IMG/VR virus record: IMGVR_UViG_2671180847_000009
Reading direction: 5' to 3' (one strand)
Length of the DNA: 34,419 nt
DNA from: a virus
Lineage: Duplodnaviria > Heunggongvirae > Uroviricota > Caudoviricetes
Made by a program: the position numbers and the translations under genes. Positions 470 through 34,419 of this stretch are shown one piece after another. The notes beneath the pieces were generated by a model that had not been told where the DNA came from, made no database searches, and saw only the letters and a list, made by a program, of their open reading frames with translations. Within the stretch, counting starts at the first letter, position 1; each line of letters opens with the position of its first letter.

Positions 470-488
470 GCGCGTAAGAAAAAGAAAA

Positions 489-520
489 CCCGCAGTTTTT
501 ACGCTGCGGGTTTCTGCTTT
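489..520. terminator. Rho-independent terminator (bidirectional hairpin) after the YidD-like gene
   Basis: Perfect 7-bp stem cccgcag/ctgcggg (489-495 / 504-510) followed by T-rich tttctgcttt on + strand and preceded by A-run (T-run on - strand). Confidence 0.55.
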
Positions 521-1004
521 GGGATGTGTATAGGGTGCCTTATCGGCCTTACCCTGGCAACCGATTGACGGGGAAGTTGCCTTCCCCGTCGCGGTTTTCT
601 TACTGTCTACATTGTAAGAACGCCGCAAACTCCGCTCCCCAGAAGCTCATCCGTATCTCACACAGTGAACCGTGTAGCATCCAGATGATGAGGATTGCCG
701 TTACGCAGAACGTAATGGCCGTAAGCGATTTTTGCGACATAGCGCTTGCTCCTTTTTCGGGGAGGCGCTAACCTACGACTTGCGAAGGTTGTATGGCTAG
801 GGCCTCGGGTTAACGTTAAAGTTGACTCGGGGCCTTTCCACATTCGGCCTTCGGGTATTCCCTCCAGCCATCAGCCGAAAGGCACCCGCGCGAATTCTAG
901 CCTGGTTTTTTCCCTTGTTTCAATCCGTTGAGACTTATCAGCCTTCTGATGTAAAATTCCCGACCGCAGACATTATTCAGTCACGCATTTGATACATGCT
1001 TCCG

Positions 1005-1028
1005 CCGGCGTTCGCGCCGGTTTTTTTC
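1005..1028 (+). terminator. Rho-independent terminator, + strand
   Basis: Stem ccggcg/cgccgg with ttcg loop followed by ttttttt (1021-1027). Confidence 0.5.
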
Positions 1029-1503
1029 GTCCTGTTGCTGCATAGATCGTCATGCGCGATCGAGGCGCGGTATTGATCCTTTTTTCAGTTTAATTTTGAC
1101 TCTCAATTTTACGCAGGCCGCGCCGCGTCTGGCTTCGTTGTTTGACGATTTTTTGATGCGATCCTTTCGTGATCGTTTCCCGTCTCGCGTAAAGTATGAA
1201 AACTCTTTTAATATCATGCGGTTTTATTGCCCCTGCCATTTATGCGATCGTAAAAACCACTCTGAAAACTGCAAAAAATTTCAAAGCGTGAAATTTCAGA
1301 TCTCCGCTTTTCCCTCAGTTGCTGCGCGGGCTGGCGGTCAGTTTTGCACGGCAGAAAACTGAAAAAGTGTTTCGACACAAAACCCGCGGGTTGGAGGGGG
1401 TAGCGCGGTTTACGTCACCTCACACTTTACGTCACACCGTTTACGCGGTGTGTGCATACAGCGCCGGAATGGCACGCAGAACGCATTAATCAGGTGGTGG
1501 ATA

Positions 1504-1530
1504 TGAAAAACGCACGGTCGGAACCGTGCG
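1504..1530 (-). terminator. Rho-independent terminator ending the tail operon (minus strand)
   Basis: Stem cgcacggt/accgtgcg (1511-1518/1523-1530) with A5 on + strand (U-run on minus-strand RNA) 40 nt downstream of the 565-aa gene stop. Confidence 0.5.
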
Positions 1531-1570
1531 TTGTTTGATGGGGCGTTTATGTGGGTTTTATGTCGGGAGC

Positions 1571-3268
1571 TCAGGCGATAAGGTCGCCGTATTTTTCGCG
1601 CAGGCTCGTAGCCTGCAGGGCATCTGCGGCAAGTTCGCCGCTGTTCATTGGTGCGCCAGTGTTGTTGTGGGTGTGGTTTGCTGTGTGCGTGGCCAGCAAT
1701 TGAATCAGATCCAGAATATCAATCAACAACGTCAGCAGATTAAGTTCGGATTTTTCCCGTGAGCCACCGCGACCAATAAATACTGTCGGGGCTGTAAACT
1801 TCAGACCGCCGTCCGCCCGGCATGTTCTGCGGCCTCCCACGTTTTCAGTCAGGTCCTGCTCAATTGTGGATATTGTCCCTTTGAGTTTAGTCAGCAAATC
1901 CTGCGCTACCATCTGGATATGCTCGCTGGCTGCGATCGCGTAATGGCCGGTAGTAAGGTGCTCTATTTGTCCTGCCGCCAGCTTGCTGGTTCCCAGAACA
2001 CTGGTTATGTCGTTTGCCCGTACTGTGGTTGTTCTGGTTGTTGTGGTGCGCTCTTCTGCATCACTGTTAATTGTGCGGGTGGCTGACTGCTCCCTGATTT
2101 GCTGGTCTGTTTCTCTGTGCCAGCTTCCGTCAGTCGTGACGCGCTGAAACACTTCTGCGCGCTGTTGCTGCAGTTGTTCGCCGGGCTTTACATCAGGCAG
2201 GTTATGGCCAGCAGGTAAGATTTGCCTGATAACAGGTTTATCCGGGCGCCCTTCAATGTTAGATATTTCCACGATGGTGCCTGCCGGCGGGTAGGCAAAA
2301 CATCCCGCCTCGCTACCAGCCATCGGGACGGGGAGTGGGACTGCCGGGTAAACAGGCGTATCGCTTTTATCGTTGCCGTCCTCATCGAGCAGTTGCACGT
2401 CCACGGCGTAGCGTGGACGGAAGCTGTCGGCCACATCGCCCAGGGTGGCGGATTCCGTTGGTGCAATGACGCGCGCCAGCCTGGTGTGTAGTGTGCCGCT
2501 GGCCAGTTCCGGGAACTGTGTTTCCATCTGTCTGCGTAATGGTGATTTGGAGACAGGGCTGCCCGTGACGGTAAGGCGCTCCCACGTCAGAGTCATTTTC
2601 TCGTTGTTGAGGGCTACGCGGGTAATACGCCCGGTGGGAAGATTCACGCCCGGTCGCACAGTTTCCATGAACATGATGTCGATGCTGTTTCCGCCGCTTT
2701 GCCCGAGAGCGTACTGTTGCGGAATATCCGGCATCGTAATACTGGCAAATCGTGAATCAGCGGCGCTTCCCACAAATACAGAACCGTCCGGCATTGGGTG
2801 CCAGACGTAATCGCTGATACTGAATGCGCGCCCCAGCTGGCTGAGTAGCTGCGTTCCGCTGCCGCTGTGGGTGATGTAGGGGGTTGGTGTGTTGACATAA
2901 TCCGCGTCCGGGGTGATAAAAACGATGCCGCTTTGTCGTCCCAGATTATCTAACACCTCCCGCAACGTCGGGTGTTGCATGGAGCAGGGGAAATCAAAAT
3001 CCAGCACAGCAGCTGCTTCACGGATAAAAAGGCGGCGCGAACCATTTTCGGCGGGTTGGTCGCGTTCAACGTAGCCGGAGAAATAGCGCCAGACTTCACC
3101 GTCACGGCCGAGATCAATTTGTACCATTGCGCCGGCAAGGCTTTTTTCTGGTGACAGATTATTAACAGAAATGAAGCCACGACCGGCAGCATTCAGGGTA
3201 AGAACAAGGCTTATATCGGCAATTTCCACCCGTTCGCCATTAATCATGCAGCGTTGTATCAATTTCAT
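1571..3268 (-). CDS. Phage tail/baseplate protein, 565 aa (possibly central hub or spike; P2 gpD-like by position)
   Basis: Last gene of the late tail operon, start overlaps stop of upstream gene (ATGA coupling); size and position suit a baseplate hub. No motif recognised with certainty. Confidence 0.4.
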   Translation of the reverse strand: MKLIQRCMINGERVEIADISLVLTLNAAGRGFISVNNLSPEKSLAGAMVQIDLGRDGEVWRYFSGYVERDQPAENGSRRLFIREAAAVLDFDFPCSMQHPTLREVLDNLGRQSGIVFITPDADYVNTPTPYITHSGSGTQLLSQLGRAFSISDYVWHPMPDGSVFVGSAADSRFASITMPDIPQQYALGQSGGNSIDIMFMETVRPGVNLPTGRITRVALNNEKMTLTWERLTVTGSPVSKSPLRRQMETQFPELASGTLHTRLARVIAPTESATLGDVADSFRPRYAVDVQLLDEDGNDKSDTPVYPAVPLPVPMAGSEAGCFAYPPAGTIVEISNIEGRPDKPVIRQILPAGHNLPDVKPGEQLQQQRAEVFQRVTTDGSWHRETDQQIREQSATRTINSDAEERTTTTRTTTVRANDITSVLGTSKLAAGQIEHLTTGHYAIAASEHIQMVAQDLLTKLKGTISTIEQDLTENVGGRRTCRADGGLKFTAPTVFIGRGGSREKSELNLLTLLIDILDLIQLLATHTANHTHNNTGAPMNSGELAADALQATSLREKYGDLIA

Positions 3269-24774: not shown

Positions 24775-25734
24775 TTACTCCTTGTCCATTGCGTACAGCC
24801 CATTAACCAGAGCAAACTGTGGCACCCCGTCCGCGATGAAAGTCGCATTAACTCCGCAGGCTTCGCGGATAGCGGGTGCCACAATCTCCGCCCCTCCACC
24901 GACAACCATCACCCGCCCGTAACCCGAAAAACCCGCCAGCGCGCGGATCACGCGTTGTTTCAGTGTTTCTTCCTTTTCACGAATAACCGCCATCAGGCTG
25001 GCGTAATGCGCGTCATTGTGGATGTGCTGGCGCAACCAGGCTTCATCATGGCGATGTTCGATAATGGTATTGGCGATGTGGTGACTGGTACGCATACCGT
25101 TGGTGGCCATCACCGACAGCACGGCATCGGCCATCAGGGAAACGCCTACGTGTGGATCGCAAAACACCTGGCTGATACCTGCCAGTTGTCCCTGAACCTT
25201 TGCCACATCCAGCGTGGTTCCGCCCAAATCCACAATCAGCAGGGATTCAAACGGACTCATGTCAGCCAGTGCTTTAAAGCCAGCCGGAATGGATTCAGGC
25301 ATAACCCGTACATTACGGATAGTGAATGCTTCGCCGTTCTGGTATTCCACCGGGCGCATAACGTTTGCTTTTTTGCGGTTGATGTTGGCCATGTCCGGCT
25401 GTGCGTTTGTGTCGAAATACTCGCTCAGTGGCAGGGTGACAACCACATCCACCTCCTGTGGCGTGATGCCTGATTTGACCAGCGCATGATGAATGGCAAT
25501 GACATTCACATCGCTGTACTGGTATTGCGTGTCGGTCGTCTGGACAAAGCGATCGCTGACCGGATCAAAACCATAGCGCACGCCATCAAGCATGTAGTTC
25601 GCGGGCTGCGTGCCACCGAACGGCGCAGACCATTCCGACTTGAAGCTGTTCGGGCTGATGGCGTTGCGGCGTTCGCCGTTCTCAGTCCATGCCAGCTTGA
25701 TGTTGGTGGAGCCGTCGTCGATACAAATTTTCAT
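24775..25734 (-). CDS. parM: ParM/StbA actin-like segregation ATPase (319 aa)
   Basis: N-terminus MKICIDDGSTNIKLAW...ISPNSFK...YSDVNVIAIHHAL...LLIVDLGGTTLD...VMVVGGGAE parallels plasmid R1 ParM (MLVFIDDGSTNIKLQW..., recalled) across the ASKHA phosphate and adenosine motifs. Confidence 0.7.
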   Translation of the reverse strand: MKICIDDGSTNIKLAWTENGERRNAISPNSFKSEWSAPFGGTQPANYMLDGVRYGFDPVSDRFVQTTDTQYQYSDVNVIAIHHALVKSGITPQEVDVVVTLPLSEYFDTNAQPDMANINRKKANVMRPVEYQNGEAFTIRNVRVMPESIPAGFKALADMSPFESLLIVDLGGTTLDVAKVQGQLAGISQVFCDPHVGVSLMADAVLSVMATNGMRTSHHIANTIIEHRHDEAWLRQHIHNDAHYASLMAVIREKEETLKQRVIRALAGFSGYGRVMVVGGGAEIVAPAIREACGVNATFIADGVPQFALVNGLYAMDKE

Positions 25735-29308: not shown

Positions 29309-29628
29309 GATATGTGGCCTCTTGTAGTAAGTTGTGAAAACTCACCATCCAGAGGTTCCAAGCTCGGGGTGGTGAGACGTACAGGGTTGGAACTACCGGC
29401 TACAAGAGATCCCGGCCCGACCGAAATCGGCCCCGTACGCCCCACCATAATTCGTGTGCGAAAAAGACGTGGCAATACAGTTCGCACAAAAAAACCGCTG
29501 GCGCGGTTGTGCGCTCTTGTAGTCTGCGGGGTTCCAATCCCGGCACCCGTTTTATGAGGTGCAGCGGAAATGTAACCTGACTGATTGCGGCATGGCAAGC
29601 GGTTTTTTTGTGTGTGCATAGTGGTTAC
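29309..29628 (-). promoter_or_regulatory. Structured 320-bp intergenic element inside the early operon (terminator/attenuator-like hairpins, possible promoter or small RNA)
   Basis: No credible ORF; minus-strand RNA contains hairpin CCGC-GCCA-GCGG followed by U7 (plus 29488-29506) flanked by mutually exclusive stems CGCACAA/TTGTGCG and GTGCGAA/TTCGCAC; further long-range complementarity CTCTTGTAG/CTACAAGAG (29320-29328/29401-29409). Confidence 0.3.
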
Positions 29629-33357: not shown

Positions 33358-33423
33358 CGGTTCATCAGGCATTTATTTCCCAGAGCTGTGATCAAGATGA
33401 TGTTTTCATTGGAGGGCTTCCTT

Positions 33424-34419
33424 ATGTCGATTAAGAAGCTCGCTAATGGCAAATTTTGTGTGGACGTGCGGCCTGCTGGATCAGAAGGAAAGAGATTCAG
33501 GCGGCGATTTGATACTCGTGGTGAGGCTGTTTTGTATGAGCGTCATGTATTGCAGCATTACCACGACAAAGACTGGGTTGATAAGCCAACAGAACGGCGG
33601 TCGCTGAGGGAGCTGCTGGATTGTTGGTGGTTGTATCACGGTAAAAATCATCCTTACGGTGCGATGGAGCGAGTGCGTATTGCTGCGGTCATTAGTGATC
33701 TTGAAAGTATTAATGTTACACGCAGTGATCAACTTACTCGTAAAAACATAATTAATTATCGGTTATTGTTGCTTAACCGCGGAATAAAACAATCCACGGT
33801 TAATCGTTATTGCGCAATGATGAGTGGTTTTTTCACAAAACTAATTGACGCAGAGGAATATTCTGGGGCTAATCCGTTTCATGATGTGAAAAAACTTAAT
33901 ATCAAACAGCCTGAAATGGCTTATTTGTATCATGAAGATATTCCACGATTACTGGAGTTGTTATCAGGTGATGAATTAAAAGCCGTCTTGTTGTGTTTGG
34001 CAACAGGTGGAAGATGGGGTGAAGTTGCAAATATCAAGGGGGAGCATGTTATTAGCGGCAAAGTCATTTTTATGGAAACAAAAAATGGGAAGCGTCGCGT
34101 TATACCTATATCGTCAGAACTGGAGTGCATGATTAAAACAAAGGCCACTGGTCGTTTAATTTATCCAAGTTATTCTGCTGTCAGAACGGCTATCAGAAAG
34201 GTGAGGCCCGATCTTCCTGAAGGGCAGTCGATACATGTTTTACGGCATACCTTTGCTACTCACTTCATGATTAATGGTGGGAATATCATCACGTTGCAGA
34301 GAATACTTGGACATAGCACTATTCAGCAGACGATGACTTATGCCCATTTTGCACCGGATTATCTGCAGGATGCTGTGCGCTTTAATCCTGTGGCTGAGTT
34401 GTCCAGATATTGCCCATAA
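33424..34419 (+). CDS. int: Tyrosine integrase, P2 Int-like (331 aa)
   Basis: Start MSIKKLANGKF with GGAGGG RBS; near colinear with P2 Int (MAIKKLDDGRYEVDIRP...) including HxLRHTFATHFMINGGxIITLQRILGH and catalytic Tyr in MTYAHFAP; stop at window end. Confidence 0.85.
   Translation: MSIKKLANGKFCVDVRPAGSEGKRFRRRFDTRGEAVLYERHVLQHYHDKDWVDKPTERRSLRELLDCWWLYHGKNHPYGAMERVRIAAVISDLESINVTRSDQLTRKNIINYRLLLLNRGIKQSTVNRYCAMMSGFFTKLIDAEEYSGANPFHDVKKLNIKQPEMAYLYHEDIPRLLELLSGDELKAVLLCLATGGRWGEVANIKGEHVISGKVIFMETKNGKRRVIPISSELECMIKTKATGRLIYPSYSAVRTAIRKVRPDLPEGQSIHVLRHTFATHFMINGGNIITLQRILGHSTIQQTMTYAHFAPDYLQDAVRFNPVAELSRYCP

Follow-up and report, generated by a model that had tools for sequence, protein, structure and literature searches.

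The hok/sok locus is a textbook type I toxin-antitoxin system. In its archetype, R1 hok/sok (parB; RF01794, PF01848), the mechanism involves a closed full-length mRNA, 3' processing of this mRNA and pairing with Sok (PMC9841398). A second system, hokW-sokW of the Stx2 prophage Sp5 in E. coli O157:H7 Sakai, is functional and was shown to help lysis (PMC8621323). In E. coli K-12, hokA/sokA is a chromosomal locus broken by IS150. A recent survey reported that prophages are enriched in hok and that mok is difficult to define outside R1 (bioRxiv 10.1101/2025.08.07.668861).

We analyzed a window of 34,419 nucleotides, which is a P2-family prophage with major capsid, gpA, terminase and portal genes. 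With a probability of about 90%, the minus strand of segment 478-923 bears a complete type I toxin-antitoxin cassette of the hok/sok family, which forms accessory cargo at the prophage end opposite to the integrase (Table 1). The system is of a known kind, and its gene is annotated routinely. Its hok/sok architecture was shown by computation; the transcript ends, Sok expression, 3' processing, toxicity and the role of mok are inferred.

Table 1. Coordinates of the cassette elements and of flanking features in the window
Feature	Position	Strand	Remarks
hok promoter	923..894	minus	-35 TTGAAA 923..918, 18-nt spacer, -10 TAGAAT 899..894
Full-length hok mRNA, ~410 nt (predicted)	887..~478	minus	predicted +1 G887; 3' end in U-run after terminator
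tac-like 5' element GGGUGCCUUUCGGCU	887..873	minus	partner 549..533 in MFE fold
mok-like leader ORF, 61 aa	843..658	minus	overlaps hok in another frame
ucb-like local partner of 5' end GUGGAAAGGCCCCG	841..828	minus	RNAalifold consensus
Predicted Sok RNA, ~58 nt	782-840	plus	variable single-stranded 5' tail, 16-bp hairpin 799-836, UUUCC tail
Sok promoter	746-774	plus	-35 TTGCTC 746-751, 17-nt spacer, -10 TAACCT 769-774
hok SD hairpin	770..741	minus	helices 9 and 10, 100% and 97% paired (17 loci)
hok CDS	740..600	minus	46 aa, MSQKSLTAITFCVTAILIIWMLHGSLCEIRMSFWGAEFAAFLQCRQ; Pfam and PHROG matches, intact in relatives
GC-rich 3' hairpin	590..567	minus	9 nt past hok stop codon; helix 16
fbi-like fold-back element AGGCCGAUAAGGCACCC	549..533	minus	3' UTR of hok mRNA; partner 887..873
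hok terminator	514..485	minus	minus-strand terminator call, tail UUUUCUUUUUC; helix 17
Spacer terminator	1004..1028	plus	scan: hairpin 1004-1021 + T7; missing where hok adjoins ogr
Exact repeat TTTACGTCAC, two copies 17 nt apart	1409, 1426		within spacer 930-1570
Tail-operon terminator	1532..1509		within spacer 930-1570
Baseplate gene	1571..3268		phage gene beyond spacer 930-1570
Tyrosine integrase	33388-34419		P2-family prophage, far end from hok

Like R1, the window codes for a small hydrophobic toxin with the LCE-R...AAF motif, and the order of elements is the same in both: promoter, tac, a Sok-target hairpin bearing GAGG, a sequestered hok Shine-Dalgarno sequence, hok, GC hairpin, fbi and terminator. 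Both have an antisense promoter with 17-nt spacing inside the leader, and in both the MFE fold closes the 5' end onto the 3' end. The two differ in the length of the toxin (46 aa in the window, 52 in R1) and of the leader (147 nt and ~167 nt, respectively), and the carrier is a prophage here, whereas it is a plasmid in R1. The window toxin shares PHROG 251 and a prophage location with HokW; however, HokW has 51 aa and belongs to a lambdoid phage, the window toxin belongs to a P2-family prophage, and function has been shown for HokW only.

Region 521-1030 had been described in a sequence-only reading as non-coding, with only short, protein-unlike ORFs. This does not hold for the minus strand, where the ORF at 740..600 encodes a Hok/Gef toxin. 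It matched Pfam PF01848 (HOK_GEF) with 30 bits against a gathering cut-off of 22 and was assigned to PHROG 251, 'MokW-like host killing' (E 4e-22). NCBIfam searches with the toxin also returned Hok-family matches. The nearest curated model was HokA (E 5e-8), and the window toxin and K-12 HokA are 40% identical, with the MxQK...WM...SLCE...AAFL.C motifs in both, but the score against the HokA equivalog NF007290 was 32.9 bits and did not reach the curated cut-off of 89. Relatives with 87-98% identity are named Hok/Gef in RefSeq. The ORF was unbroken in 17/17 related loci, and its variable columns were distributed as 26/18/35 over the three codon positions, that is, with a third-position bias. 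A decayed pseudogene, which had been named as an outcome that would overturn the earlier description, is therefore not what was found. Plus-strand ORFs 526..771, 746..931 and 822..992 were also considered as genes and rejected: they had no Pfam matches and were open in only 4/17 relatives.

A consensus scan scored the hok promoter at 10/12 matches. The positions of its hexamers are kept in 16 relatives, and upstream of the -35 element all similarity is gone. The transcript would begin at 887, the position to which the first position of RF01794 aligns, and end at about 478. Minus-strand RNA of this extent folded with an MFE of -174 kcal/mol (z -7.55), and 0/100 shuffles folded as well; the opposite strand is also strongly folded (z -7.0). 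Structure in the region thus clearly exceeds that of shuffled sequence. Over 17 loci, the whole hok mRNA fold had 87.8% of cells paired, compared with 40-46% in slid controls, and 25 of its base pairs showed double changes. The GC-rich hairpin behind the hok stop codon corresponds to a 10-bp stem, gacggggaag/cttccccgtc, that had already been pointed out, and it was recovered at 567-590 (566-591 with 11 pairs in our scan). Compensatory double changes occur in 5/10 of its pairs, with 93.5% of cells paired; an equivalently placed hairpin occurs in the R1-type locus, which likewise shows the order stop codon, hairpin, fbi, terminator. The repeats ggcctcggg (801-809) and ggccttcggg (846-855), also reported before, are present. 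The hok Shine-Dalgarno sequence, GGAG at 752..749, lies 8 nt ahead of the AUG and is buried, together with the pre-AUG bases, in the SD hairpin.

Nine terminator-like sites were found in positions 1-1700 of the window, whereas shuffles gave 2.6 +/- 1.3. The leftmost terminator of the region had been assigned to a YidD-like gene. Its hairpin (485-514) is real, but the assignment is not borne out, as the minus strand has the better T-run. The hairpin also persists beside hok where the locus lacks a YidD gene, so that it is the terminator of hok and could at most be bidirectional; helix 17, which it forms, has double changes in 6 pairs. The description of the region as GC-rich is valid only relative to the left flank (0.50-0.54 versus 0.42-0.45) and not relative to the phage genes on the right (0.52-0.61).

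The helix between the tac-like and fbi-like elements (helix 1) had 95.4% of cells paired in 16 loci of the 17-locus alignment. In folds made independently of the alignment, the 5' end closed onto the 3'-UTR element in 15/16 relatives, and the R1-type positive control did likewise. The sole exception was Ecol_542, where the MFE partner is the competing local ucb-like element. GGCACCC of the fbi-like element is invariant although the rest of the 3' UTR diverges. Within the subfamily the helix is too conserved to show double changes; it is supported by its conservation and energy and by comparison with R1. The tac/fbi pair is GGGUGCC/GGCACCC in the window subfamily and GGCGCUU/AAGCGCC in R1, so that complementarity is preserved between subfamilies. 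These in silico data indicate long-range tac/fbi closure of the predicted full-length hok mRNA. When the 3' element was removed in silico, the 5' end refolded locally. In the RNAalifold consensus, positions 46-60 pair with 93-106, an arrangement kept in 15-16 of 16 loci. GGCCCCG of the ucb-like element can also pair with CGAGGCC (807..801, minus), and the Rfam alignment places the hairpin at 841..828 onto the R1-type Sok-target hairpin.

On the plus strand, the Sok promoter is nearly invariant: TTG-N-TAACCT was found in 17/17 loci and 25/25 viral leaders, with an invariant -10 element, and the layout is that of the R1-type promoter (TTGCGC-17-TATCCT, read from locus L019). The RNA made from it would extend from about 782 to 840. 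It has a predicted folding energy of -29.8 kcal/mol (z -4.6), compared with -14.8 kcal/mol (z -2.2) for its complement; the Sok strand folds better since the complement has C·A mismatches in place of three G·U pairs. It was the more stable strand in 14/14 distinct relatives, with a mean ddG of -8.9 kcal/mol. The UUUCC tail makes a weak terminator. Taken together, the conserved promoter and the strand-specific hairpin fit a Sok-type antisense RNA of ~58 nt.

The Rfam 'sok' model (RF01794) aligned over its full length to 887..727 (-) with 36.7 bits (E 2e-6). The gathering score of this family is 59, and the match was obtained in a permissive scan. Four relatives in the subfamily (L004, L010, L014 and L017) scored 43-50 bits, whereas the R1-type plasmid locus L019 scored 87 bits, on the hok strand. 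The orientation of the model is that of the hok mRNA leader and not of Sok, as its position 1 falls on the mRNA 5' end (887) and its last positions on the hok AUG. The default Rfam scan is silent at 521-1030 because the subfamily scores 37-50 bits, below gathering. In this default scan of the window, no gathering-level match was found within 521-1030, be it to tmRNA, RNase P RNA, SRP RNA or the rest of Rfam; the only matches were C4 and isrK, far away. C4 antisense RNA scored 79 bits and isrK 71 bits, and the two are adjacent in the presumed immunity region; 29365-29562 (-) and 24775-25734 (-) are the coordinates for these RNAs together with a ParM-type gene of the prophage. Other permissive Rfam matches in the region (Thr leader, Spy1786666, snoRNAs and CRISPR repeats; E 0.1-10) were discarded, all being due to the terminator hairpin.

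The sequence-only reading had leaned towards a structured RNA gene; as a non-coding gene, this would be an sRNA or a cis-regulatory element. Strong folding of both strands and the lack of an Rfam family at gathering score speak for it, and part of this view survives, as hok mRNA and Sok are predicted to be folded RNAs with conservation and covariation in homologues. However, the segment contains an intact toxin gene and is not non-coding: the Hok ORF is above the Pfam cut-off and conserved as coding sequence, among Rfam models that of the hok leader matches best and no other family fits, and the plus-strand ORFs are unconserved. We regard the chance that a non-coding RNA gene explains the region as negligible.

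The hok/sok cassette belongs to the mobile element rather than to the chromosome. Since a profile search of genome contigs with the Hok alignment gave just 4 near-identical loci, the diversity of relatives was drawn from E. coli genomes, plasmids and IMG/VR. Relatives of the unit occur in 1756/5426 complete E. coli genomes, and all inspected copies were annotated 'Hok/Gef family protein'. The closest copies (93-96% identity) likewise adjoin the 565-aa baseplate gene but occupy three different places in the chromosome, at serS, flk and raiA, and their similarity to the window begins at ~480, just beyond the terminator. More distant copies lie beside ogr at ends of P2-like prophages, in ICE-like regions and on one IncI1 plasmid, and one is located in a lambdoid prophage between gpJ and a tail-fibre gene. 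Between these mobile-element contexts similarity starts at the -35 element and stops at the terminator. Searching a phage database with 24 kb of the window returned only tail-fibre and ParM fragments, so no close reference phage was found. A Mu-like transposable phage was considered to explain the varied insertion sites and was rejected because a tyrosine integrase is present and the capsid, gpA and terminase genes are of the P2 family. A ParM-type plasmid segregation gene is also present in this integrase-bearing P2-family prophage.

The region had alternatively been viewed as a chromosomal attachment or target locus flanking the prophage, and its location near one prophage end, between convergent terminators, would suit this idea. 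The unit, however, accompanies the phage at no fewer than three different chromosomal sites, next to the same baseplate gene, and occurs in other mobile elements; the genes to its left are phage-associated (phrog_12383), the same pair being found beside hok and ogr in another prophage; and neither a tRNA gene nor an att-like feature was found here. An attachment or target region is thus extremely improbable, and the mobile contexts together with phage-associated genes on both sides place the hok unit inside the element as cargo.

Many predicted prophages of ~35 kb in IMG/VR terminate exactly at the hok gene. In L025, L027, L031 and about 45 other IMG/VR loci, the predicted prophage contigs stop exactly 3 nt past the last hok codon; prophage-boundary callers therefore cut there and lose the 3' UTR with its fold-back element and terminator. 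Two Firmicutes-labelled records, L005 (Planococcaceae MAG UBA3378) and L006 (Vagococcus sp. WN89Y), contain an enterobacterial-type hok 96% identical to that of the window; in one of them it lies on a 226-kb contig. These records probably represent contamination or mislabelling.

Positions 930-1030 are outside the hok module and are absent where hok abuts ogr. They belong to a spacer of 640 bp (930-1570) that separates hok from the baseplate gene; it occurs in just 50/5426 E. coli genomes, in none of which it is annotated. A second terminator on the plus strand, proposed earlier, was indeed detected in this spacer (Table 1); it would halt transcription from the hok/Sok side before this could enter the tail operon in antisense. 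A small RNA between a promoter-like site at 928-957 (+) and the 1004-1028 terminator was considered but gained no support, its fold being unremarkable (z -1.3). On the left (1-469, +) are two genes that overlap by 8 nt, one DUF4177-like (phrog_12383, E 2e-40) and the other YidD-like. Two different P2-like prophages end with this pair next to hok (the second is in L009, 4001-4469), and the pair was found in only 28 E. coli genomes. The YidD-like protein is a phage-carried paralogue of a membrane-protein insertion factor, and its neighbor Hok is a membrane toxin.

If regulation of the hok/sok cassette follows that of R1 (PMC9841398), the full-length hok mRNA would be locked by the 5'-3' fold-back and thus be both untranslated and inaccessible to Sok. 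Slow 3' trimming to the GC hairpin would strip the fold-back element, and the 5' end would refold locally. The leader would then become accessible, and the unstable Sok, while it is made, would pair with it, resulting in block and decay. After loss of the element or a stop of transcription, Sok would be gone first and the stable mRNA would yield Hok, which would permeabilise the inner membrane and kill the cell. The prophage may benefit by addiction or stabilisation, and possibly by exclusion of other phages or by help with lysis.

The one point at which the window subfamily is mildly unusual is the inconsistent conservation of its mok leader ORF. R1 requires mok, whereas the mok-like ORF of the window begins further upstream than that of R1 and is not consistently conserved, and no start codon was found in the window leader at the R1-equivalent mok position; the coupling step may therefore differ here. 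The ATG of the mok-like ORF is invariant, but a 1-nt indel goes along with a switch of the start from one ATG to another, at -103 or at -130. In two loci a stop directly follows the conserved ATG. Of the 17 loci, only 8 have a leader ORF reaching hok; among viral contigs, such an ORF is found in 15 of 25 distinct leaders (61/80 loci), and no codon periodicity was seen in the leader across relatives. It is possible, though on balance doubtful, that this phage-borne, HokA-like Hok subfamily is regulated without a canonical mok leader peptide. This idea is based on the missing R1-type mok start and on the absence of a hok-reaching ORF from ~40% of distinct leaders, as well as on the strong SD of hok itself, buried in a conserved hairpin.

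The uneven conservation of the mok-like ORF could also mean that the locus is an inactive hok-family relic, a passive passenger unable to kill or to be regulated, as is the case with several K-12 hok loci; there, IS150 interrupts hokA, whose partners mokA and sokA are both pseudogenes. The window copy, however, has both promoters, the ORF, the SD hairpin, tac/fbi and the terminator intact and contains no IS, the toxin ORF is open in 17/17 relatives with a coding-type substitution pattern, and the repeated gain of a precise-edged module by different mobile elements argues for selection. A relic is therefore very unlikely, and a complete hok/sok cassette remains the preferred interpretation.

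As hok/sok is well described and has been reported to be enriched in prophages, and as nearly identical copies are routinely annotated, the locus has little discovery value, and its practical value is in annotation. This hok subfamily is systematically overlooked at the RF01794 gathering threshold, and a hairpin-rich 'intergenic' stretch of ~450 bp at a prophage end needs checking on both strands for tiny toxin ORFs. The sharp edges of the module, from the -35 element to the terminator, are useful for delimiting prophage cargo. The variable mok ORF raises a small question over the generality of the R1 regulatory model. If regulation in the subfamily is indeed independent of mok, Sok would act through duplex-triggered decay or leader remodelling rather than by blocking mok translation.
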